Part shown: positions 713-38,138 of the stretch, one piece after another
Position numbering within the stretch: position 1 is the stretch's first letter
Layout: the number at the start of each line of letters is the position of its first letter
Origin: a virus
Strand: one strand, 5' to 3'
Length of the DNA stretch: 38,403 bases
Virus record (IMG/VR): IMGVR_UViG_3300045988_055586
Span: 1-38,403 of that record
The notes under the pieces: generated by a model
Told to the model about the DNA's origin: nothing
Database searches by the model: none
The model's input: the letters and a program-made list of their open reading frames with translations, nothing else
Position numbers and translations under genes: made by a program

Positions 713-924
713 ATGGCCAGGCCTGTAATGTTTGCAAATATTGCGCTGAATTGAAAACTCCGTATGAGCGTTCAGGCGGTGCGGCCATTTACGGATATTG
801 CTTTAAGAATGGCGATAAGGATTATTCCACCGATATGGGCAAGGGCTATCCGATATTCTTACCTCTTAGCTGCGGAGGTACATGCAAAGACTTTAGGCGA
901 AGGAGGGGGTTATCCCATGATTGA
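709..924 (+). CDS. Hypothetical small Cys-rich protein
   Basis: ATG 709 overlaps the previous stop (ATGA). 71 aa with CNVCKYC...C...CGGTC. Confidence 0.5.
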   Translation: MNGQACNVCKYCAELKTPYERSGGAAIYGYCFKNGDKDYSTDMGKGYPIFLPLSCGGTCKDFRRRRGLSHD

Positions 925-1108
925 CTTGAAACCTTGCCCGTTTTGCGGCAGCACAAAAAATAGCGTTGTCAGGTCAAAGTACGATGACGGTTGGTATGCT
1001 GAAATCAAGTGCAAGTGCGGAGCCGACATGAAATTTTGGGCACTTAAAAAGTCTTGGGCAGAAGAAACCGCAATCTCGGCGTGGAACAGGAGGGCTGACA
1101 ATGGCTGA
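917..1108 (+). CDS. lar: Lar-family restriction-alleviation-like protein
   Basis: GGAGGGGG upstream of ATG 917. 63 aa: MIDLKPCPFCGS...IKCKCGA...AISAWNRRA, i.e. a CPFCG...C.CG zinc ribbon plus the AI..WN.R signature of Lar-like proteins. Confidence 0.65.
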   Translation: MIDLKPCPFCGSTKNSVVRSKYDDGWYAEIKCKCGADMKFWALKKSWAEETAISAWNRRADNG

Positions 1109-16972: not shown

Positions 16973-19900
16973 ATGAGTACAAAGGGCAGAGAAAACTGGG
17001 AAAAATACAAGGCTGGGTATGTAAGTACAAGGCTGGCTGAGGAAGTATCCACAGGGAATGCCGGGAGAGACAGCTGGAACGAGCTGAAAAAGACGATTCG
17101 ATTTGATAAGCCCGAGAGCACACAGAATGTGGCCTCGGGCAGCGGCGCACAGAAGGACAAAAAGTTCGACGCCGGACAGTACGCCGAGGATGCCGGGAAG
17201 CTGTTTCTAAACGGCGTGGTAGAAGGTGTCGCGGCAACGGGAGCAGCGGTGGAAAACTGGATCGGAAAGGGACTGGATAAGCTGTTCCCCGGCGCCGGAT
17301 TTGAGGGCAGCGGACTTTTCAATGTGCTCTATAATGGCCGTCCTGACTGGAAGTGGGCAGGAGAAAACGGCCTGGTGGGCATAAAGCAGGACCGGGAATA
17401 CAATCAAGCATCCTTGCAGGAAAACGCCGAGCGCATTGACGGAAAGGCAATGAAAAAGGCTGCAGAGTTCGGCGGAGACATCGCCTACGGACTGGGCAAT
17501 GCTGCACCTATGGCGGCGACAGCAATGGTGACCGGCGGCGCGTCAGCGGCAGCTGCGCTTACCAAGGAGGGATTGCTGAAAACGGGCGCGGAGGTCGTAG
17601 AAAAGTCGGGTGTCCTCAACTCAATGAGCCAGGCCGCACGAGATATGCTGACCAGCCGAGACTACTGGACGAGCTTTGCCTCCGAAGTGGGTATGGACTA
17701 CTACGACGCCCTGGATAGCGGCGCCACAGAAGACGAGGCCCTGCGATACGCGCTCTCCTCGGCGGGGATCAACTCCGTTATTGAAATCGGCGGCGGTATT
17801 CAGAGGATCCCCGAAAAACCTACCTTCAGGACCTGGCTGAAATCGGCCAACGAGGAAGGTATGGAGGAAATCCAGCAGGGGATCGTGTCCCGGCTGCTGG
17901 AGAATGTGGTCTACAACAAGGGGAACTCCATCGCGTCCGTCACGGACGAAAACGCGGTACTAAACCCCGTGACCGCGCTGGGCGAATACGCCGGCGGTGC
18001 AGCGGTGGGCGGAATCCTATCCGGCGGGCAGCAGCTGACCCAGCGAGGAATCAGTAATGCGCAGTATAAGAGGGCCTATAACCGAGGCATACAGGAAAAC
18101 GGCGTCACCGGGGCCAAGTACAACGCGGAGACCGGGAAGCTGGACGCCATCGTGAAGGACGATCAGGGCAAAATCAAAACCGTTCCGGCGGAGAAGGCGG
18201 AGCTTTCGCCGCTCCAGGAGGAACTATTCGACTGGGCGACAGATCTGGGCGAGGCTGGGCCGGTGCTGGTGAGCGCATACCGACAGACGCAGAACCTGGA
18301 AACCTACGCCCGGCAGTTCCACAATGCCTATGAATACGGCAAGGCAGGCGTGCCTATGGACTATGTGAATAAGTCCCAGGCGGTGAGCTATCTAAACACC
18401 ACTCAGCGGGAAATTGCCTACGAAGAGGGCGCAAAGGCACACCAACGGGAGCTGCAGGGCCGCCAGGAGAGGATGCGGTCCGGCGGGACCGTGGACACCA
18501 CTGCACGGAAAAAACCCGCTGTGAGCCTGCGAGGGGCCACGGTGGGAAGCGTAAAGTATGCACCGGTGAACAAGAAAGCCATGGATGGCCGACAGTGGGC
18601 CTCCGTGGGCACCATGAAAGCCTTTGCCCAGGCCACGGGAGTGAATGTGGTATTCTATGAGAGCCAGGCTAACGAGCGAGGCGAATATGAGGGTGCCAAC
18701 GGATTTTACAAGAACGGCACCCTGTATCTGGACATCAACGCCGGACGGGACCGGGTGGCGATGGGGGAGACGGCCATTTTGAAAACTGCCGCCCACGAGA
18801 GCACCCACTACATCAAGGAGGGCAGCCCGGAGCAGTACGAGGTGCTGAAAAACTTCGTTGTGGAAAAGTTGACCCGGGAGAAGGGCATCAGCTTTGACGA
18901 CCTGGTGACGGACAAGCAGCGCCGGGAGCCGGGGCTCTCCTACGAGGAGGCCGTGGACGAGGTGGTGGCTGACGCCTGCGAGATGATGCTCAAAGACAGC
19001 AAGGCGGTGGAGCAGCTGGCCCGGGAGAACCGCAGCCTGGCTGAGCGCATTCGCCAGTGGATCCGAAAGTGGGTGAGGAGCCTGAAGGCCGCCATGGAGG
19101 GCCTGACGGCAGACCGGCAGGAGAGCCGCGCCATGATGCAGTACGCCCAGGAGCTGCAAGAGATATGGGACAACGCCCTGGTGGATGCTGTCAGGAATGG
19201 CCGGGGTGTTGGAACCGGAAGGGCACAGTATTCCATCCGCGTCGTGGACGGAGAAACTATGACTGTGTTGGACACGGAAAATGATACCCGTAGCTTTGAT
19301 GCCGCCGAGAAATATCTGAAGGCACTGGTGGACACGAAGCACCCGTTTGCCACAATTCTTGCAGATGCACAGCCGGTCTACATTGGAAAGGATCTGCCGG
19401 GCGAGTATAGAAGCTCTGAATACACAAAGGGTATGGAGGCTAAACTGCGTCCGGTAAAAATGCAGGCCGCAACAAACCTTGACGAAATGCTGCTCCTTGC
19501 CGAGAACGGCGAATGGCGCGAGAATGTGAAAGACAAGCACAAAACTGATGCTCAAAATGGGTGGTACCGCTATGATGCACGATTCGAAGTACCGATTCTG
19601 AACGAAAAGAAGGCCGTAGACCATTACACGGTTTACGGCGGAACGCTTCTGATTCGCAATGACGCAGACGGAAAATCCTATTTGTACGACCTTGTGGACA
19701 TAAAAAAAGAGAAGAGAATCAGCACAGCCTCCTTCTCTGCCCGAGGGCATTCGGAGGTATTGGCGCCAAAACCTTCTCAACAACAGTATATGCAGGAGCA
19801 GAAGAAAAGTCAAGAAAAAAGTAATGAAAAAAGTAATGAAAAAAGTAATGAAAAAGTGCAGTTCTCCATGCGGGAGCCTGTGGAGGAAACCCGCGACCTA

Positions 19901-22900
19901 ATAGCACTGCACAACATGACGCTGGACAACCTACGGGGAGCCCTGAAGCTGGGCGGCCTGCCCATGCCCAGCATTGCCATCGTCAAGGCAAAGAGTGGAC
20001 ACGATCAGTATGGCCCGATCTCTCTGGTTTTCAGAAAGGATACTATTGACCCGCAGCTGTTCCGCAGCAACAAGGTGTATGGCTATGACGCATGGACGCC
20101 GACTGCGCCCCGCATTGAGTATGAAGTCAATGAAAAGGCGGCAGACAAGCTGCGTGAACTATATTACAGAATGCAGCGGGAAAAGGGCCGCGATTTCGCA
20201 GCTCCATTGTACTCTGTGGCAAACACGCTGGAGGACGAGTTGAACAACAAGGGGGGACTGGATAAGGTTGTTGATACGATGCGAGATGACACGCGCATCA
20301 TGCAAATTTATCTGGAAGACACGGGCGCTGGCTCTGTGGCAAATGTTATGCGGAAAAATGTGTCGCGTATGAGTGAAGGCGAAATCGAAATGGCACAGGC
20401 GTTGACGGAAAAGCTGGGTGAAAAGACAATCCAAAGCATCAGCGCACAGACGGGAGAATCGCCGTTTTCTGCAAGACGCCGCTGGTTTGCAAAGTATGGA
20501 GAGGCTGTAAATGATGCGCTGACTGCATATTACGAGCAGGAGGGTATACCTCATGAGGAAGCTCTGCGCGCAGTGGAGGCTGAGACAACAGCCAACAAGA
20601 TCAAGAGCGTGCTGCTTGCAAGAAAGTATCTAAACGGAAACGCTGAGGTTATAACGGAGGAGGTGGACCGGGAGGCCACAGACAAGGCAATCCGGGAGAA
20701 GGTTAATCAGGATTCGTATGACCAGTGGTTGGAGGGCCTGTTTTCCGGTGTGGTGAAAAATTCCGGCATTTACAACGGAAAAGATTACTACACAGCTTCC
20801 GGTAATCGGAGAAGTTTTTCTGCAACCCATTATGAAGTCAATCTGGAAAACACTGTGCGGGCCATGAAGCAGGGCGACCAGACTGGCGTGGGAACATTCT
20901 TTGGCGGACAGGCAATCTGGGGCGTAACCGCAAAGGATTACAGGTCCATAGAGGAAATTAAAGAAGACTCCGGACGGCTGCAGAAGCTATCAGAAGAAGA
21001 ATACAGCCAGATTCGCCAGCAATTCACAGAGAGGCTGGCAAACATCACCAGCGAGATCATGGACAAGAATAACGGGAACGAGTTCACCGCTTCGGACGAT
21101 GCGGCGAGTGCCATTGTGGAAACACTGCGAACCAAGCATACCGTGAAAGCAATCGACAAGGAGCTGCGCACCTATCCGACCCTGCACATTCAGCCGGACA
21201 CGGCGCAAAAGGTGTTTGATTTGTGCCGGGACATTTCCAATATGCCAACGGGCTATTTCGAGGCAAAGCCGCAGCGAGCAGTTGGATTTGACGAGGCGGC
21301 GGCTGTGGTGGTGCCGGACAACCTGCCCGCAGATTTGCGGAAGGGGCTGGAGCAGATTGGCGCAACGGTACGAGAGTACAAGGCAGGAGACGAGCAGAGT
21401 CGGCTGGAGGCCGTGAATGCCGATGAGCGGGTGCGGTTCTCTCTGCGTAGTGTACCCCCTGTAAAGCCCAAAAATGGGGGTTGGGAACGAGGAGCAACTT
21501 TCGATGAAGTGAAGACTGAACACCCAACATTATTTGCTCTCGATGCGGATGAATCGAGTACAAGGAATCCAACTCAGATATCGGGAACCGTAAAAAGTTA
21601 TAGAAAAATTTTCGATGCGCTGAAAGAGGAGGGGTTTGACGGAACAATTCTTGATGCGAGCTCCGGGCTCGGATATGGCACACGCTTAGGCCGAGAAGAA
21701 TATGGGTATAGAGTAGATGACATTGAGCCGTTCCCGGACGCGAAATATAAACCAAGATACACGGACTATTCTGCTCTGGATAATACTTACGATGCGATTA
21801 TAAGCAACGCCGTTCTGAATGTTATACCGCAAGATTTGCGGGATGCAATGGTTGTCAAAATAGGCGAGCTGCTGAATCCGGGCGGGCGAGCATTTATCAA
21901 TGTGCGTGGCACTGATGTTAAAAATGCCAGCAGCAAAGTGGCAATCAACGAAAGTGGAATGGAGTATTTCATATCCAATACGGGCAGCTATCAGAAGGGG
22001 TTCACGACGAAAGAATTAGTTGCATATCTACGGGACGCGCTTGGAGACGGGTTCACGGTGCGGGCTACAAACAAGTTCGGAGCAGTAAGCGCTATTGTAA
22101 CCAAAAACGAAGAAAGAGCGCAATCCCAGCAGCGGGAGCCGCGCCTATCGGATCGGGCCGTGCTGGAGTGGGCGGCGGAGATGGCGCTGCGGGACAAAAA
22201 CAAGAGCTGGACGGCGGAGGACCGGGAGCAGCTGGAGCGGTTCCGCAACCGGATGCGTATGCTGCAAGACACCCAGGCGGAGCTGGAGGCCCTGAAGGAG
22301 GAGCGAAAGGTCCTCCTGGCCGGGCGGAAGGTCTCGGAGATCAAGGGTGAGGAGCGGGTCGAGGTGACCAAAAACAAGAACCGCATCGACATCGCCAAGA
22401 ACAAGGCGGAGCGCTACGAGGCGGCGGTGTGGGAGCTGGAGTCCAAGACGGCCATCAAGACTCTGCTGAAGAAATCCCGCAGAATTGTGGAAACCGAAGC
22501 GTCCGACCAGGCCCGGAAGGAATATCGGGAACGGCAAGAGGAGCGGGAAATGGTGAATGTTACCCGGCGAAAGGTGGAGCGAAACGCCAAGCGCCTGCTG
22601 GAGTACATGAACACCAATACCGACAAAAAGCACATACCGGAGGCCCTGAAAAAGCCTATCGGGGAGCTGCTGGAATCGCTGAATTTCTACTCCAATTCTG
22701 CCCGCAGGGGCGGCTACACCAGCCGGGCAGACCTGAAATACTACGAGGCCATGCAGGGATTGCAGGCCGCGCTGGCAACGCAGCGAGCATTTGAAGACAC
22801 CGGGGAAGGCACGGATGTATTCAAGGGATATTTAGACCTTCCGGCGGGATTTGAAAGCCTGCTGGCCGTCCATGTAGAGCGGGTAAAAAATGTCGTAGAA

Positions 22901-25474
22901 AAGCACCCACTTAAAACCGATGTCTTAAGAATGATGGACCTGGGAGACCTGAGGGATTTGGATGTGATCCTGTCTGTGATGAGCCGCAGTGTGACGAAGA
23001 TGAACGAAATGTTCATAAAAAGGCGGTTTGCCTATGTGGCGGACGCGGCAGAGGATTCCATCATCGCCATGCAGCGCCTGGGACAGCACCAGGATAAGCC
23101 CGGAGAACGGTTTGCTCTGTGGGACAATACGCTGCCCTGGTACGCCTTCCAGCGCTTCGGCGAGGGCGGCAAGGCGGTGTTTGAGGGGCTGCAGGACGGA
23201 TGGGACAAGCTGGCCTTTAACATGAAGACAATCCGCGACTTTAGACAGAGCCTCATAAGCGATGCACTGGCCCGGAAATGGGACACAGAGACCCACAAGG
23301 TGGAGCTGACGGACCCGGACGGGTCCGCGGTGACGGCCACGCTGACGACGGCACAGCTCATGAGCCTCCGGTGCCTGTCCAAGCGTAAGCAGGCCCTGGG
23401 CCATCTCCTGGGCGGCGGCATAAGACCGGATGCCATCGAGATAACAAACACCCTGGGCGATAAAATCAAAAAGAAGAAGTGGAACCAGGACAAGCAGTTC
23501 AAGCTGACGGAGGGATCCCTGGGGCAGCTGCTGAAGCTGCTGACACCGGAGCAGATCAAGGTGGCGGACGCCATGCAGAAGTTCATGACCGAGCAGGGGT
23601 CCGCCTGGGGTAATGTGATAAGCATGGAACGCTTCGGGTATCGGGCATTCACGGAGCAGAACTATTTCCCCATCGAAACGGATCGGCAGGACCGGGAGGC
23701 GAAAACCGGAGATGCCAAGGAGGGCAGCCTGTATAGGCTACAGAACATATCGGCAGTAAAGCCGCTGGTAAAGAATGCCAACAATGCGCTGATCCTGCGG
23801 GGCATCTTCGATGTGTTTGCAAACCACACGGCGGATATGGCAAAGTATAACGCTATGGTGCTGCCTATCATAGATGCTCAGAAGTGGTATAACTACCGAT
23901 ACGGTGAGAAAAACGAGGCAGGTCAGGTGAACACCAGGACCGTGCAGCGTGCCATGACCAAGGCCTACGGAGAAGTGGCTAACAACTTCGTTATCAAGTA
24001 TTTGCAGGACCTGAATGGAGTAAAGGAAAACGGCGACCGGGGCGACACCATCCCCAAGCGGATGATCTCCAACTATAAGCGGGCCATGGTGGCCGCCAAT
24101 ATGCGCGTGGCCCTCTTACAGCTGACGGCCTATGCGCGGGCCTCGGCGGTGCTGGACTACAAGTACCTGGCAAAAGCGTTCACGGACAAGACCGGCACTA
24201 AGCAGGCCACGAAGGAAATGATGGAGAACAGCGGTATTGCTCTATGGAAAAGCCTGGGGTTCTTCGACACCGATGTGGGCCGCTCCATCCGCGACCAGAT
24301 CAAGGGCAAGAGCAGCAAAATCGATGATCTTGTGGACAAAACTATGGTTCCGGCGGAAAAAGGCGATGAAGTGACCTGGGCGCGGCTGTGGCGTGCCTGT
24401 AAGCTGGAGGTGCAGGACAAGCAGCATCTGACAGGGGAGGAACTGCTGAATGCAACAGCGGAGCGGTTCCGGGAGGTTATCTATCGGACGCAGGTAGTAG
24501 ACTCCACTATGACCCGAAGCCATACCATGCGTGGGAGCGGGACCCTGACCAAGATGGCCACCAGCTTTATGAGCGAGCCCACGGTGAGCTACAACATGGT
24601 GATGGAGTCCACACGGCAGATCGCGGAGGACGCCAAGCGTATGGGACTGCGCACGGCCATCCGGCGGAACTGGAAAACGGCTGGGCGGGCCTACCAGGCA
24701 TATATCGTATCGGCCATTGTGACGGCCATAGTGGAATCGCTCTATGACGCCCTGCGGGATTCAGACGACGACAAATACCTGGACAAGGTGTGGAAAGCTC
24801 TGGGTGGAGAAAAGCCGGAGACGGTGAAGGATGGGATTCTGGATGTGATCTTTGGCCTGAACGGAAACCTTGCGGGGGATATTAACCCCATCGGGAAGGT
24901 GCCGTACCTGCGGGATGTGGTGAGCATCCTCGGCGGCTACAGCAACGGGCGCATGGACACGGAGGCCGTGGCAAACCTGAAAAAAGCAATCGACATCTGG
25001 GACGAAGTGATCCGCTTGCAGACCGGAGACCTTGACAAGGCTACCAAGACCACCTACTACGGCAATATGACCACCTATGGGATGATCTATCCCACCGCTA
25101 AGGCGCTGTCACAGCTTACGGGGCTGCCGGGATCGGCGGCTATGCGCGAAGCGGCTACGGCGTGGAATACAACGGTGGGGACGGTGTGGCCGGCACTCAA
25201 AATGCGTACCTACGAGGATAAAAAGCTCCGGGAGGCCTGGGAGAACTACGGCAAGGACTCTGGTGTGAGCTATGCGGTCATGTACCGAGCTATCCAGGAT
25301 TTGAAGGAGATTGAGAGTGACCGGGACGCCGACGGAAACGCCATTAGCGGATCCCTGAAGGCGAAGTATGTGGAATATATTCGCGGAATGGGCCTGACGA
25401 GGGCGCAAGAAAAGGCTGTGTGGGAGGCGGCGAAGAATTCCTCCTGGAGCGACAAAGGGACCCCGTGGGGGTAA
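16973..25474 (+). CDS. Giant polyvalent virion/ejection-type protein (2,833 aa) with zincin metallopeptidase-like and SAM-methyltransferase domains
   Basis: AAGGAGG upstream of ATG 16973. HESTH at nt 18794-18808 (aa 608-612) in LKTAAHESTHYIKEG. MTase motif I ILDASSGLGYGT from nt 21647 (aa 1559), then DDIEP, AIISNAVLNVIP and LLNPGGRAFINV. Long coiled coils. Uninterrupted ORF. Confidence 0.85.
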   Translation: MSTKGRENWEKYKAGYVSTRLAEEVSTGNAGRDSWNELKKTIRFDKPESTQNVASGSGAQKDKKFDAGQYAEDAGKLFLNGVVEGVAATGAAVENWIGKGLDKLFPGAGFEGSGLFNVLYNGRPDWKWAGENGLVGIKQDREYNQASLQENAERIDGKAMKKAAEFGGDIAYGLGNAAPMAATAMVTGGASAAAALTKEGLLKTGAEVVEKSGVLNSMSQAARDMLTSRDYWTSFASEVGMDYYDALDSGATEDEALRYALSSAGINSVIEIGGGIQRIPEKPTFRTWLKSANEEGMEEIQQGIVSRLLENVVYNKGNSIASVTDENAVLNPVTALGEYAGGAAVGGILSGGQQLTQRGISNAQYKRAYNRGIQENGVTGAKYNAETGKLDAIVKDDQGKIKTVPAEKAELSPLQEELFDWATDLGEAGPVLVSAYRQTQNLETYARQFHNAYEYGKAGVPMDYVNKSQAVSYLNTTQREIAYEEGAKAHQRELQGRQERMRSGGTVDTTARKKPAVSLRGATVGSVKYAPVNKKAMDGRQWASVGTMKAFAQATGVNVVFYESQANERGEYEGANGFYKNGTLYLDINAGRDRVAMGETAILKTAAHESTHYIKEGSPEQYEVLKNFVVEKLTREKGISFDDLVTDKQRREPGLSYEEAVDEVVADACEMMLKDSKAVEQLARENRSLAERIRQWIRKWVRSLKAAMEGLTADRQESRAMMQYAQELQEIWDNALVDAVRNGRGVGTGRAQYSIRVVDGETMTVLDTENDTRSFDAAEKYLKALVDTKHPFATILADAQPVYIGKDLPGEYRSSEYTKGMEAKLRPVKMQAATNLDEMLLLAENGEWRENVKDKHKTDAQNGWYRYDARFEVPILNEKKAVDHYTVYGGTLLIRNDADGKSYLYDLVDIKKEKRISTASFSARGHSEVLAPKPSQQQYMQEQKKSQEKSNEKSNEKSNEKVQFSMREPVEETRDLIALHNMTLDNLRGALKLGGLPMPSIAIVKAKSGHDQYGPISLVFRKDTIDPQLFRSNKVYGYDAWTPTAPRIEYEVNEKAADKLRELYYRMQREKGRDFAAPLYSVANTLEDELNNKGGLDKVVDTMRDDTRIMQIYLEDTGAGSVANVMRKNVSRMSEGEIEMAQALTEKLGEKTIQSISAQTGESPFSARRRWFAKYGEAVNDALTAYYEQEGIPHEEALRAVEAETTANKIKSVLLARKYLNGNAEVITEEVDREATDKAIREKVNQDSYDQWLEGLFSGVVKNSGIYNGKDYYTASGNRRSFSATHYEVNLENTVRAMKQGDQTGVGTFFGGQAIWGVTAKDYRSIEEIKEDSGRLQKLSEEEYSQIRQQFTERLANITSEIMDKNNGNEFTASDDAASAIVETLRTKHTVKAIDKELRTYPTLHIQPDTAQKVFDLCRDISNMPTGYFEAKPQRAVGFDEAAAVVVPDNLPADLRKGLEQIGATVREYKAGDEQSRLEAVNADERVRFSLRSVPPVKPKNGGWERGATFDEVKTEHPTLFALDADESSTRNPTQISGTVKSYRKIFDALKEEGFDGTILDASSGLGYGTRLGREEYGYRVDDIEPFPDAKYKPRYTDYSALDNTYDAIISNAVLNVIPQDLRDAMVVKIGELLNPGGRAFINVRGTDVKNASSKVAINESGMEYFISNTGSYQKGFTTKELVAYLRDALGDGFTVRATNKFGAVSAIVTKNEERAQSQQREPRLSDRAVLEWAAEMALRDKNKSWTAEDREQLERFRNRMRMLQDTQAELEALKEERKVLLAGRKVSEIKGEERVEVTKNKNRIDIAKNKAERYEAAVWELESKTAIKTLLKKSRRIVETEASDQARKEYRERQEEREMVNVTRRKVERNAKRLLEYMNTNTDKKHIPEALKKPIGELLESLNFYSNSARRGGYTSRADLKYYEAMQGLQAALATQRAFEDTGEGTDVFKGYLDLPAGFESLLAVHVERVKNVVEKHPLKTDVLRMMDLGDLRDLDVILSVMSRSVTKMNEMFIKRRFAYVADAAEDSIIAMQRLGQHQDKPGERFALWDNTLPWYAFQRFGEGGKAVFEGLQDGWDKLAFNMKTIRDFRQSLISDALARKWDTETHKVELTDPDGSAVTATLTTAQLMSLRCLSKRKQALGHLLGGGIRPDAIEITNTLGDKIKKKKWNQDKQFKLTEGSLGQLLKLLTPEQIKVADAMQKFMTEQGSAWGNVISMERFGYRAFTEQNYFPIETDRQDREAKTGDAKEGSLYRLQNISAVKPLVKNANNALILRGIFDVFANHTADMAKYNAMVLPIIDAQKWYNYRYGEKNEAGQVNTRTVQRAMTKAYGEVANNFVIKYLQDLNGVKENGDRGDTIPKRMISNYKRAMVAANMRVALLQLTAYARASAVLDYKYLAKAFTDKTGTKQATKEMMENSGIALWKSLGFFDTDVGRSIRDQIKGKSSKIDDLVDKTMVPAEKGDEVTWARLWRACKLEVQDKQHLTGEELLNATAERFREVIYRTQVVDSTMTRSHTMRGSGTLTKMATSFMSEPTVSYNMVMESTRQIAEDAKRMGLRTAIRRNWKTAGRAYQAYIVSAIVTAIVESLYDALRDSDDDKYLDKVWKALGGEKPETVKDGILDVIFGLNGNLAGDINPIGKVPYLRDVVSILGGYSNGRMDTEAVANLKKAIDIWDEVIRLQTGDLDKATKTTYYGNMTTYGMIYPTAKALSQLTGLPGSAAMREAATAWNTTVGTVWPALKMRTYEDKKLREAWENYGKDSGVSYAVMYRAIQDLKEIESDRDADGNAISGSLKAKYVEYIRGMGLTRAQEKAVWEAAKNSSWSDKGTPWG
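19814..19856 (+). repeat. 12-bp tandem repeat (gaaaaaagtaat x3 plus a partial unit) encoding (EKSN)n linker
   Basis: Read directly from the sequence. Encodes QEKSNEKSNEKSNEKV inside the giant ORF. Confidence 0.9.
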
Positions 25475-35126: not shown

Positions 35127-35237
35127 ATGAACGAGTTTACAGGCCAGGCGCTGGAGCGGCTGGGGAGAGAATATAGCACCGTGAAAGGGCAAAAGGCCGG
35201 AGCTATGAAAGAGGGCGTGCGGGAGGGCAAGAAATGA
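35127..35237 (+). CDS. Hypothetical 36-aa protein
   Basis: GGAGGGAAAGG upstream. The stop overlaps the MTase ATG (ATGA). Confidence 0.3.
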   Translation: MNEFTGQALERLGREYSTVKGQKAGAMKEGVREGKK

Positions 35238-36046
35238 CTGCGAAACTGTATCACGATAATTTCCAAAATTACAAGAAATACGGAATACCAAAAGCCCAGC
35301 TTGTGATTGCGGATATACCCTACAATATCGGCGCAAATGCCTATGGAAGTAACCCCATGTGGTATAACGGCGGGGACAATGCCAACGGGGAGAGCAAATT
35401 TGCCAAAAAGTCGTTTTTTAATTCCGACGGATATTTTAAGATCGCGGAGTATATGCACTTTTGCTCCCGGCTGTTGAAACCGGAGCCGAAGCAAAAAGGG
35501 AAAGCTCCGGCGATGATCGTATTTTGCGCATTTGATCAAATCCAAACGGTGGCGGAGTACGGCGCACGGTATGGATTCAAAAACTGGTATCCCGTTTTCT
35601 TCTGCAAAAACTATTCTGCCCAGGTACTTAAAGCAAATATGCGTATTGTTGGCGCCACTGAATTTGCCGTGGTTCTTTACCGGGACAAGCTGCCTAAATT
35701 TAACAACGGGCGTGAGCTGGACGAGAACGGAAAAGCTATTCGCGGAACCGGTAAGATGGTGTTTGACTGGTTTCAGTGGGAGCGGGATGGAAAGGATATT
35801 CCCAAAATCCACCCCACGCAAAAGCCGGTGAAGGTTTTGAAGCGACTTATCGAAATATTTACCGATCCGGGGGATGTGGTAATTGACCCGTGCGCCGGTT
35901 CCGGGGCGACGCTTCGGGCGGCGGAAGAGATGGGGCGGAAAGCATACGGCTTTGAAATTGATCGGAATTTTTGCCGCTTGGCAAATGAAAAAATGCTTGT
36001 GACCCGGGAAGATGGACAAATTTCTATGCTGGGGGTGCAAGGATGA
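35234..36046 (+). CDS. Beta-class DNA amino-methyltransferase (N6-adenine or N4-cytosine)
   Basis: Motif IV VIADIPYNIG precedes motif I HPTQKPVKVLKRLIEIFTDPGDVVIDPCAGSGAT. Confidence 0.85.
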   Translation: MTAKLYHDNFQNYKKYGIPKAQLVIADIPYNIGANAYGSNPMWYNGGDNANGESKFAKKSFFNSDGYFKIAEYMHFCSRLLKPEPKQKGKAPAMIVFCAFDQIQTVAEYGARYGFKNWYPVFFCKNYSAQVLKANMRIVGATEFAVVLYRDKLPKFNNGRELDENGKAIRGTGKMVFDWFQWERDGKDIPKIHPTQKPVKVLKRLIEIFTDPGDVVIDPCAGSGATLRAAEEMGRKAYGFEIDRNFCRLANEKMLVTREDGQISMLGVQG

Positions 36047-37938
36047 TATTTGCGCAGGAGACGATGACGGAGGAGATTATCGTCGACAACTTTGCCGGTG
36101 GCGGCGGTGCGTCTACCGGAATTGAACTGGCTACCGGGAGACAGGTGGCGATTGCCATTAACCATGACCCGGATGCCATACTTATGCACCGCACGAACCA
36201 CCCTTATACGGAACACCTGCAGGCGTCTGTTTGGGATGTAGACCCTAAATCCGTATGCAGAGGCCGCCCCGTGGGTCTTGCGTGGTTTTCACCGGACTGC
36301 AAGCACTTCTCCAAGGCCAAGGGTGCGGCCTTGGTGGACCGCAAAATTCGCGGCCTTGCGTGGATCACGCTTCGCTGGGCAGCGGAGGTGCGGCCTCGAG
36401 TCATCATCCTGGAAAATGTAGAGGAATTTCAGACCTGGGGGCCTGTGCGTAAGGGCAAGCCAGTGAAGAAGCTGGCAGGAACGACTTTCCGGCGGTTTAT
36501 CAGACAGCTTGAGGCGCTGGGCTACACCGTGGAGTTCCGGGAATTGGTGGCGGCAGACTTCGGAGCGCCTACCTCCCGCAAGCGGTTTTACATGATTGCC
36601 CGCTGTGACGGCAAGCCCATCGTGTGGCCGAAGCCCACCCATAGCAAGACCGGCGCGGATGGACTGTCTAAGTGGCGCAGCGCGGCGGAGGTCATCGACT
36701 GGACGTTGCCGTGTCCGTCTGTATTCGCATCCAAGGCGGAGATCATGGAAAGGTACGGCCTGAAAGCTGTTCGGCCTCTGGCGAAGAACACCATGCGGCG
36801 GATAATACGGGGCGTGGACAAGTTCACCATCCGGAGCGGCAAGCCGTTCATCGTACAGCAGAAATTCCAGAACGCTGCGCAGAACATCGAAAAGCCATTG
36901 ACGACTGTTACGGCGGTAGGAGCGCATGAATTGTGCAAGCCGCTGCTGGCTCCCGTGACGGTGACCAACACCAGCAACAGCGTGGGGGCGACTGTCGGCG
37001 AACCGATGAACACGGTGAGAACCGGCGGCGGAGGCGGCCAGATGCTGGTGACGCCGTTCCTTGCGGAGTGCAACCACTCCGGCGGCGGACATATTGCGCC
37101 TGTGACAGATGCACACAAGACCATTACGGCAAAACACACCGGAGGTATCGTGGCGCCCACGCTGATTCAGTATCACGCGGAGAAGACGGAGAGCGTCCGT
37201 GCTTCCGGAGTGGGATCGCCCATCAACACCGTGGACGCGTCCAACCGCTACGGCCTGACCTGCGCCAGTTTGGTGGAGTATTACACCGGCGGCAGGCCGT
37301 TGGATATGGCAGACCCGATGCACACCGTTACAAGCCATGACCGGGAGGCGGTGGTAGCGGCACATATCGCTAAGTATTACGGCGGCGTGGTGGGTGAAAA
37401 GGCAGTGGAACCGTTGCCTACAGTAACAGCCATTGACCACAATGCGGTCTGTGCCGCACATGTTGTTAAGTTCAAGGGTAACGATCTGGGACATGGAGCA
37501 AAGGAACCGCTGCAGACCGTGACCGCAAGCGCCGGCGAGTTTGCCGTGTGCAAGGCACATCTGGCGAAGATACGAAGCGGTGATGATCTGGGCCACTGGC
37601 CAGAGATACGCGACCTTCTGAACGAGTTCTGCGGATACGCGCTGGCGGAGGACGAGGTGCTTCTGCTGAAGATCGGCAAAAACCTGTACTACATCGCGGA
37701 CATCGGGCTGCGGATGCTGTCACCCCGAGAGCTGTACAACGCTATGGGTTTTCCACCCGATTATATCATCGATCGGGACTATTTGGGGAACGAATACGGG
37801 CGAAGCAAGCAGGTGGCCCGTTGCGGCAATGCCGTGTGCCCACCGGTGGCGTCTGCGCTGGTGCGCGCAAACCTTCCGGAGTGGTGCGGAAAGAAAATTG
37901 CTACGATGGCAGAACTGTTGGAGGAATTAGCGGTATGA
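36043..37938 (+). CDS. DNA (cytosine-5)-methyltransferase with expanded seven-module variable region
   Basis: Motif I DNFAGGGGAS, IV FSPDCKHFSKAKG, VI ILENVEEF, VIII SRKRFYMIA, then RELYNAMGFPPDY and GNAVCPPVA. Seven P-x-x-T-V/I-T modules lie between 36892 and 37599. Confidence 0.85.
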   Translation: MIFAQETMTEEIIVDNFAGGGGASTGIELATGRQVAIAINHDPDAILMHRTNHPYTEHLQASVWDVDPKSVCRGRPVGLAWFSPDCKHFSKAKGAALVDRKIRGLAWITLRWAAEVRPRVIILENVEEFQTWGPVRKGKPVKKLAGTTFRRFIRQLEALGYTVEFRELVAADFGAPTSRKRFYMIARCDGKPIVWPKPTHSKTGADGLSKWRSAAEVIDWTLPCPSVFASKAEIMERYGLKAVRPLAKNTMRRIIRGVDKFTIRSGKPFIVQQKFQNAAQNIEKPLTTVTAVGAHELCKPLLAPVTVTNTSNSVGATVGEPMNTVRTGGGGGQMLVTPFLAECNHSGGGHIAPVTDAHKTITAKHTGGIVAPTLIQYHAEKTESVRASGVGSPINTVDASNRYGLTCASLVEYYTGGRPLDMADPMHTVTSHDREAVVAAHIAKYYGGVVGEKAVEPLPTVTAIDHNAVCAAHVVKFKGNDLGHGAKEPLQTVTASAGEFAVCKAHLAKIRSGDDLGHWPEIRDLLNEFCGYALAEDEVLLLKIGKNLYYIADIGLRMLSPRELYNAMGFPPDYIIDRDYLGNEYGRSKQVARCGNAVCPPVASALVRANLPEWCGKKIATMAELLEELAV

Positions 37939-38138
37939 AAAGCCCCTGCGTAAAAGATTGCCCGGACAGGCTCCCGTGCGGGGCCTGCCGGATGAGCTGC
38001 GAGGCGTTCCGGGCGTATGAGGCCCAGCGGCTGGAGGATGTACGAAGCCTGTCTGTGGGATCTCTGACTGCAGGGAAAAAGAGTATGTGCCGCGCGGATT
38101 GGAGAAGCACCCAGCGCGGGAAGAACCACAGACGATAG
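37935..38138 (+). CDS. Hypothetical small Cys-rich protein
   Basis: ATG overlaps the MTase stop. MKSPCVKDCPDRLPCGACRMSCEAF. Confidence 0.5.
   Translation: MKSPCVKDCPDRLPCGACRMSCEAFRAYEAQRLEDVRSLSVGSLTAGKKSMCRADWRSTQRGKNHRR

Follow-up and report, generated by a model that had tools for sequence, protein, structure and literature searches.

The viral DNA filed in IMG/VR as IMGVR_UViG_3300045988_055586, analysed over its whole length of 38,403 nucleotides (nt; hereafter the window), carries a gene whose product is a C5-cytosine DNA methyltransferase (C5-MTase) with a standard catalytic core (motifs I–VIII and IX–X). Between motifs VIII and IX of this enzyme lies an array of seven head-to-tail modules, six of them containing P-x-x-T-V and one HKTIT. 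The gene, its motifs, its modules and the helix next to the last module are given below in amino acid (aa) and window coordinates; E-values refer to a hidden Markov model (HMM) of the module, and invariance to an alignment of 144 relatives.

36043..37938, plus strand: C5-cytosine DNA methyltransferase gene, 631 aa, intact open reading frame (ORF), orphan
36091..36108, plus strand: motif I, FAGGGG, S-adenosylmethionine binding, aa 17-22; read from the translation, five of six residues invariant
36289..36312, plus strand: motif IV, SPDCKHFS, aa 83-90, with the catalytic Cys86; P84, C86 and S90 invariant
36412..36420, plus strand: motif VI, ENV, aa 124-126; invariant
36574..36600, plus strand: motif VIII, SRKRFYMIA, aa 178-186; from the translation and the alignment of relatives
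36892..36999, plus strand: module 1, KPLTTVTAV..., aa 284-319, divergent, 36 aa; P..TVT present, E = 0.46
37000..37110, plus strand: module 2, EPMNTVRTGGGGG..., aa 320-356; E = 1.8e-7
37111..37215, plus strand: module 3, AHKTITAKH..., aa 357-391, without Pro; E = 1.2e-3
37216..37311, plus strand: module 4, SPINTVDASNRYG..., aa 392-423; E = 2.8e-7
37312..37407, plus strand: module 5, DPMHTVTSHDREAVVAAHIAKYYGG..., aa 424-455; E = 2e-13
37408..37503, plus strand: module 6, EPLPTVTAIDHNAVCAAHVVKFKG..., aa 456-487; E = 1e-12, within a 32-aa presence/absence polymorphism
37504..37599, plus strand: module 7, EPLQTVTASAGEFAVCKAHLAKI..., aa 488-519; E = 3e-7
37600..37656, plus strand: clade-specific helix, PEIRDLLNEFCGYALAEDE, aa 520-538; from comparison with Jekyll, phi105, P0161 and other relatives
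37711..37764, plus strand: motif IX, RMLSPRELYNAMGFPPDY, aa 557-574; R557, M558 and E563 invariant
37825..37851, plus strand: motif X, GNAVCPPVA, aa 595-603; from the translation and the alignment of relatives

The catalytic core and the module array

The assignment of the core is supported by several independent comparisons. The ORF matches Pfam PF00145 (E = 6e-25) in two separate pieces, an N-terminal one at aa 14-192 and a C-terminal one, and phrog_116 ('DNA methyltransferase') of the PHROGs collection (E = 1.7e-99). In the latter match, 615 residues are spread over about 300 profile positions, and the middle of the protein is therefore a large insertion. Motifs I, IV, VI, VIII, IX and X form a complete set in the canonical order, with part of motif IX, RELYNAMGFPPDY, at aa 562-574. 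A model built with AlphaFold2 from a 144-row alignment has the two-domain MTase fold, with a predicted local distance difference test score (pLDDT) above 90 in the catalytic core, that is, over aa 11-265 and from about aa 511 to about aa 620. Foldseek searches of the PDB with this model returned 3g7u, DNMT1, HhaI and HaeIII at E = 5e-12 to 1e-9; together with DNMT2, these matches represent the generic C5-MTase fold only, and none of the solved structures in the PDB found by Foldseek covers such an array.

The array itself is regular. Its modules are 32–37 aa long, they start 36, 37, 35, 32, 32 and 32 aa apart, and each consists of a P-x-x-T-[VI] turn, a hydrophobic strand and a Gly-rich loop. 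The pattern P..T[VIL] occurs six times in the protein, every time within aa 273-520. Shuffling the same protein 20,000 times gave a mean of 0.52 and a maximum of 5, so that six were never reached. Pairwise local alignments judged against shuffles show modules 4–7 to be clearly homologous (z = 3.6–15), with modules 1 and 3 weakly tied to them and module 2 barely so, and the A-V-x-A-A-H-x-x-K-x-x-G tail common to the last modules proved real in these alignments. An HMM seeded on modules 4–7 and iterated on relatives (consensus EPLHTVTAKGHHALVAAFLVKYYGGSVGQD) recovers modules 2–7 with independent E-values from 2e-13 to 1e-3 and reaches module 1 only at E = 0.46, while giving zero matches in shuffled proteins. 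At the DNA level, Tandem Repeats Finder reported no array and a repeat search found only matches of 12–19 nt at a spacing of 96 nt; the modules are therefore ancient and not recent duplications. In many relatives the last module has the form P-L-x-T-x-x-x-x-D-R-x-G-L-V, continues into the strands before motif IX and resembles the element EPAFTVNTIDRHGVA of the Bacillus-phage enzyme SPR. The helix of the window enzyme is modelled at pLDDT of about 90 over aa 519-530, and the helix form, which has no terminal DR-x-G-L-V module, has also been found in the relatives P0124, P0134 and P0251.

Structure prediction gives a different picture for the array than for the core. In the AlphaFold2 model aa 273-500 have pLDDT values of 29–55, and the hydrophobic half of the modules is predicted to form short strands; confidence starts to rise in the strand of module 7 (aa 500-509, block means 50 and then 66) and exceeds 89 only from aa 511. 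A relative with four modules, P0161 (478 aa, 85-row alignment), superposes end to end on HhaI and HaeIII with template modelling scores of 0.66–0.71 normalised to the target (0.71 for HaeIII), and the structure of the HhaI T250G mutant, 1fjx, is among its Foldseek matches. Its array is also of low confidence, one module being moderately confident, one very low and the terminal strand pair confident. A confident single packing of the repeats was seen in neither of the two models. This would fit a mobile or alternative docking of the modules, which are not predicted as a rigid repeat domain, the prediction being too weak to say what they form.

An earlier note on this DNA, made from its letters and ORF translations, had described seven modules with a common P-x-x-T-V/I start, a shared tail in the last of them and the flanking motifs SRKRFYMIA, RELYNAMGFPPDY and GNAVCPPVA. 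The modules do begin at nt 36892, 37000, 37111, 37216, 37312, 37408 and 37504, three of the original coordinates having been 1 nt off; the flanking motifs are present in the translation and the tail is borne out, and the common start holds for six modules, since module 3 reads HKTIT without Pro. Of the two computational checks that the note had proposed, the search for internal repeats bears it out through the module HMM and the pairwise alignments, and structure prediction gave a confident core from which no module fold could be extracted.

Relatives of the enzyme, selection and published assays

Arrays of this kind characterise a very large family of phage and prophage enzymes, and the gene of the window is not special in having one. 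A word-indexed search found at least 8,000 relatives of the enzyme. An exhaustive search of representatives at 50% identity matched 9,862 clusters at E ≤ 1e-3, of which 2,442 passed E ≤ 1e-30; the lengths lie at about 370–1,090 aa. Relatives of the window gene carry names such as Oscillibacter and Eubacteriales. Among deposited phage genomes, 501 records match the enzyme, 241 of them over at least 80% of its length. Among them are phages of Gordonia, Mycobacterium, Pseudomonas, Arthrobacter, Vibrio, Klebsiella, Escherichia and Burkholderia, Roseburia phage Jekyll, and also a record labelled Bacillus phage phi105. When modules were counted with the HMM in the best 150 of the 2,442 cluster representatives, the number of copies ranged from 0 to 12, most commonly 5–7, and the spacing was overwhelmingly 31–39 aa. 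Counts for individual members are as follows.

Record labelled phi105: 3 modules
Aeromonas phage ARM81mr, p29: 5 modules
Roseburia phage Jekyll: 6 modules
Escherichia phage Eeyore: 6 strict P..T[VIL] motifs and one P..SV variant
Paracoccus phage Pyei1, p05: 8 modules
P0136 (389 aa): 0 modules
P0251 (417 aa): 1 module

In the last two, the conserved segment that follows motif VIII is also missing wholly or in part, and they may be decayed genes or minimal cores. Across the 144 aligned sequences, conservation reaches 90% or more at the Pro and Thr of most modules, next to the conserved catalytic motifs. A test of the best-matching module position between relatives revealed loose collinearity only. 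Discrete, specificity-like module types proved not to be definable by clustering at 60% identity.

The modules are under purifying selection. Between the window gene and its relative L009 (90% identical, 83% nucleotide identity), the ratio of nonsynonymous to synonymous substitution rates (dN/dS) is 0.085 in the module array, with 0.076–0.078 in both of its halves, 0.026 in the N-terminal core and 0.12 in the C-terminal core. Among 26 close relatives of equal length, the modules are 77–99% identical and the core 94%; the 99% belongs to module 1, although it is the most divergent from the module consensus. The number of modules is nonetheless polymorphic, since 19 of 120 close relatives (80–96% identity) lack exactly 32 residues with their reading frames intact, which gives six-module forms of 599 aa beside the seven-module form of 631 aa. 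At the deletion, module 5 breaks off after its first half and continues directly into the second half of module 6 (…REAVVAAHI/VKFKG…). Deleted and seven-module forms are interspersed when ordered by core-only distance, and P0085, which has the deletion, shares an identical core with P0005, which has not; the indel must therefore have recurred or been moved by recombination, and losing or gaining a unit is tolerated, with both forms segregating.

Homologues of the enzyme are known from phages of Paracoccus and Aeromonas. In tblastn searches, Pyei1_p05 of a Paracoccus phage is 38% identical over 95% of the window protein (E = 4e-128), ARM81mr_p29 of an Aeromonas phage is 40% identical over 97%, and ARM81ld is 37% identical over 97%, so that homology to this family of 5-methylcytosine (m5C) MTases runs over the full length. 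Decewicz et al. (PMC6536676) put the identity of Pyei1_p05 to JCM7686_0772 and JCM7686_2655, from prophages of Paracoccus aminophilus, at about 69%, and it is through this published figure that the assayed pair is connected to the window enzyme; the eight modules were counted in Pyei1_p05 and not in the JCM7686 enzymes themselves. When the latter were expressed in E. coli ER2566, partial protection was obtained against 16 restriction enzymes (Dziewit et al., PMC3925955, Additional file 8): AluI (AGCT), PvuII (CAGCTG), BsuRI (GGCC), BglI and EcoO109I; Bme1390I (CCNGG), EcoRII (CCWGG), NciI (CCSGG) and CaiI; HpaII and MspI (CCGG), Hin6I (GCGC), PauI (GCGCGC) and HpyF10VI; and TaiI (ACGT) and XhoI (CTCGAG). 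In the same material, CGCG, TCGCGA, ACGCGT, GATC, GGNNCC, CCWWGG, CCATGG, CTAG, CATG, GANTC and CCGCTC are listed as unprotected. The table would reduce to about seven discrete short sites, namely AGCT, GGCC, CCNGG, CCGG, GCGC, ACGT and (C)TCGA(G). Since GCGC is protected but not CGCG, and GGCC and CCGG are protected but not GGNNCC or CCATGG, this behaviour is unlike that of an enzyme relaxed at the dinucleotide level. Phage proteins of this type, of about 700 aa, are described as widespread, with p29 and p31 of Aeromonas ARM81 as m5C enzymes of relaxed specificity (PMC5537653).

Genomic neighbourhood and short-site counts

Features of the window outside the gene are the following.

35234..36046, plus strand: N6/N4 DNA methyltransferase gene; Pfam PF01555, E = 4e-28; phrog_67
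764..1108, plus strand: Lar-like restriction-alleviation gene; Pfam PF14354, E = 1.6e-10; phrog_599
37935..38138, plus strand: small Cys-rich ORF, 67 aa, MKSPCVKDCPDRLPCGACRMSCEAF..., starting on the stop of the C5-MTase gene (ATGA overlap)
16973..25474, plus strand: ORF of 2,833 aa; PBECR5 domain at aa 962-1163, E = 3e-59

The stop of the N6/N4 MTase gene overlaps the start of the C5-MTase gene by 4 nt (ATGA), and the same gene pair is present in the contig of L009; the two orphan methylases are probably co-expressed and translationally coupled, judging from this arrangement. No endonuclease was found near the C5-MTase gene, whose neighbours are the N6/N4 MTase gene and small ORFs without a Pfam or PHROG nuclease match, and the window holds genes for replication initiation, a terminase small subunit and an endolysin, as expected for an orphan gene of a phage or prophage. 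In the L009 contig the order is SNF2 helicase, N6/N4 MTase, C5-MTase, four small ORFs and Lar, which places Lar about 0.9 kb downstream of the C5-MTase gene; in Roseburia phage Jekyll, Lar lies upstream of the methylase. The Lar-like gene of the window would follow the MTase pair at a distance of about 1.2 kb only if the genome of about 38–40 kb were circular or permuted, as the L009 contig suggests.

The counts of several short sites in the window are unusual. ACGT occurs once in the 38,403 nt, at 36703-36706, within the C5-MTase gene, against an expectation of 89 ± 9 from dinucleotide shuffles and 72 from a Markov model. In the close relatives L009 and L010 the depletion is mild (7 ACGT sites in 4.9 kb where 12.7 would be expected), and the purge of ACGT is therefore lineage-specific; it points to an ACGT-cutting restriction enzyme of the host beyond the cover of the phage's methylases. 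CTAG (4 observed against 35 expected) and CGCG (130 against 207) are also depleted over the whole window, and GGCC, CCGG, GCGC, AGCT, TCGA and GATC are undepleted, with observed-to-expected ratios of 0.93–1.22. In the Paracoccus assays, the undepleted GGCC, CCGG, GCGC and AGCT are among the protected sites and the depleted CGCG and CTAG among the unprotected ones; GATC is unprotected there yet not depleted here, and TCGA lies outside that assay set.

Two further ORFs were noted. The small Cys-rich ORF gave no Pfam match, and in relatives an ORF of 45 aa occupies the same place. The 2,833-aa ORF, with its PBECR5 domain (a phage nuclease domain like Barnase, EndoU, ColicinE5-D and RelE), looks like a phage 'polyvalent' protein.

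The array as a proposed reader of DNA and its known counterparts

In the multispecific MTases of Bacillus phages the target-recognition domains (TRDs) are about 40 aa long, the independence of these units has been proven by deletions and swaps, and inactive 'pseudo-TRDs' have been described. By analogy, each module of the window enzyme would be a minimal target-recognition unit, and the seven would dock alternately, making the enzyme multispecific in the sense of Trautner, a reading whose chances we consider evenly balanced. Modules would dock singly beside one catalytic pocket, with the conserved Thr of each standing in for Thr250 of M.HhaI, and a single polypeptide would methylate several sites that are short and mostly palindromic. 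Units would be gained or lost by in-register recombination between modules, which would alter the spectrum of protection. The role of the enzyme would be to pre-empt host restriction, because its gene is paired with one for an N6/N4 methylase and the genome has a Lar-like gene at another place. On the same analogy, it is plausible that each module is a separate TRD. Only tentatively can it be proposed that each module of about 32 aa is a self-sufficient DNA-reading cassette, one per target and taking turns at the single pocket, and that the family, with its 2,442 clusters, amounts to a natural library of hundreds of mini-TRDs shuffled, gained and lost by in-register recombination.

Several observations weigh against alternately docking modules. 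The authors who studied the Paracoccus enzymes speak of relaxed specificity (once as 'a C in CC') and not of discrete multispecificity; the assayed homologues are only about 38% identical to the window enzyme, and protection was partial at every site. The roughly 900 modules clustered at 60% identity collapse into one continuum of 666. The modules of the window are more uniform than the TRDs of the SPR type, and the hydrophobic strand that each carries looks less like an independent domain than like part of a common beta-structure. Against SPR-type enzymes the module HMM gives marginal matches only (E = 0.03–0.8), and a profile of 32 diverse modules run against all PDB sequences gave no C5-MTase TRD at E ≤ 10, so that homology of the module to solved TRDs cannot be claimed. 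In addition, the clade of the window carries the helix where many relatives have the terminal module, and the low AlphaFold confidence may merely come from misalignment of the repeats in the input alignment. The main rival is a composite and loosely specific DNA-binding domain, in which the modules would be beta-hairpin repeats that jointly build one enlarged small domain with a loose fit and relaxed methylation, their number tuning affinity or processivity and not the targets. The uniformity and continuum of the modules, their loose collinearity between relatives and the partial protection called 'relaxed' all favour it, and so does the hydrophobic strand of every module (consensus ALVAAFLVKYYG), which must be buried. 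This rival is nonetheless rather unlikely: AlphaFold, usually good on repeat domains, gave the array a pLDDT of 29–55, without a consistent packing in either of the two proteins modelled; module numbers among relatives run from 0 to 12, with a one-module deletion segregating in near-identical genes; the homologues protect GCGC, GGCC and CCGG but leave CGCG, GGNNCC, CCATGG and GATC open to full cleavage, which is a discrete pattern and not general relaxation; and the conserved Thr in every module would be left unexplained.

The number of working modules could also be smaller than the number present, one or two of them (for example the last, beside motif IX) reading DNA and the rest serving as a linker, a non-specific clamp or decoys against anti-methylase factors. 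Such an arrangement would agree with the models, in which only the strand of the last module and the segment after it are placed confidently against the core, and with the existence of relatives with one module (P0251) and none (P0136). It is improbable in view of the strong purifying selection, nearly equal in both halves of the array, of the near-invariant P and T in most modules of the 144 relatives, and of module 1, the most divergent and yet the best conserved among close relatives; moreover, the breadth of the sites protected by the homologues needs more than one reader. A last alternative, that the enzyme is not a plain methylase and makes another C5 modification (e.g., carboxymethyl) or acts on RNA or single-stranded DNA, the array binding a different substrate, draws on the presence of the C5-carboxymethyltransferase 8yf3 and of DNMT2 among the Foldseek matches of the core. 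These matches are no better than those to HhaI, HaeIII and DNMT1, the motifs are those of a canonical DNA m5C MTase, and the homologues block m5C-sensitive restriction enzymes on plasmid DNA, which makes this alternative extremely improbable. The six- and seven-module variants found in nature put the preferred reading of alternately docking modules directly within reach of a test.

This question is of biological significance because orphan phage methylases are a main counter to restriction-modification, and one enzyme covering many sites would explain how temperate phages, whose hosts are diverse and in this case gut Clostridia, get past restriction barriers. Should the modules be independent mini-TRDs, the multispecific principle of the Bacillus phages would extend to hundreds of phage genera, the 'relaxed specificity' of the Paracoccus and Aeromonas enzymes would have a structural reason, and small swappable units would be at hand for methylase engineering and for reading the methylomes of uncultured phages. 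Were each module a cassette, the arrays would amount to a compact and portable code from which C5-methylases with a desired set of specificities could be built, and would record the restriction systems met by each phage lineage.

With the monospecific enzymes M.HhaI and M.HaeIII, the window enzyme shares the two-domain fold and a conserved Thr-[LIV] in the variable region (Thr250-Leu251 in HhaI). The difference is one of number and size, as those enzymes have one element in a variable region of about 80 aa and the window enzyme has seven in about 370 aa between motifs VIII and IX. The array, which the earlier note had regarded as unusual, is so against these single-element enzymes, whereas within its own family it is the norm. 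The note had also held that finding the same layout throughout monospecific enzymes of the subfamily would refute it; the layout is indeed universal in the subfamily, and the members tested are not monospecific.

A closer layout is that of the Bacillus-phage multispecific MTases M.SPRI, M.Phi3TI, M.Rho11sI and M.H2I, which likewise combine one core with tandem units between motifs VIII and IX, centred on [SA/P]-x-T-[LIV], and which appear to share with the window enzyme the condition of temperate-phage orphans protecting against several restriction systems. In the sequences of M.SPRI, M.Rho11sI and M.H2I taken from GenBank, SPR has three and rho11s and H2 have four [SA]-x-T-[LIV] elements at 30–48 aa spacing between these motifs; examples such as SPTITTNKGEG, SHTLSASDWRG and PAFTVNTIDRHG are of the same kind as the modules of the window, where seven contiguous T-[LIV] units are found, and the likeness is at the level of the motif. 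The last SPR element also aligns with module 5 (pairwise E = 0.03). On the other hand, the only significant BLASTP match to M.SPRI covers 101 aa of the core at 23% identity (E = 2e-4), and motif IV is PCQ in SPR and PDC-x-x-FS in the window enzyme. The SPR-type units are three or four, heterogeneous and 30–48 aa apart; the family of the window has 0–12 regular units at 31–39 aa, each with a conserved hydrophobic strand. Descent from the SPR, phi3T, rho11s and H2 group was considered and rejected, M.SPRI sharing only the generic core. Of the link to tandem TRDs proposed in the earlier note, the comparable elements stand; by sequence, the window enzyme resembles these enzymes in layout and is not a member of their family. 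That tandem TRDs confer multiple specificities is established for the Bacillus phages (Trautner laboratory, as cited in PMC12707154 and PMC8936443).

The nearest counterparts are the m5C MTases of the Paracoccus and Aeromonas phages. Their repeat architecture is not mentioned in the accessible portions of the three papers that describe them (PMC3925955, PMC6536676, PMC5537653), and the literature on multiple or tandem TRDs yielded no description of it, which does not prove that none exists. The breadth of protection is already published for homologues, which leaves the functional idea not new; a regular module array of variable copy number as its basis has not been described, as far as the searches reached. 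The host phylum is different, and the window enzyme has seven modules and a helix in place of the terminal DR-x-G-L-V module. That it may protect against several restriction systems, as the earlier note had suggested, is supported by the assays published for these homologues through the 69% identity link and extends to the window enzyme by homology. Both share the same set of motifs and the same tandem P..T[VI] modules in orphan, phage-borne proteins of 565–700 aa, and on this homology the window enzyme can be assigned with high confidence to the putatively protective orphan C5-methylases of the Paracoccus/Aeromonas type.

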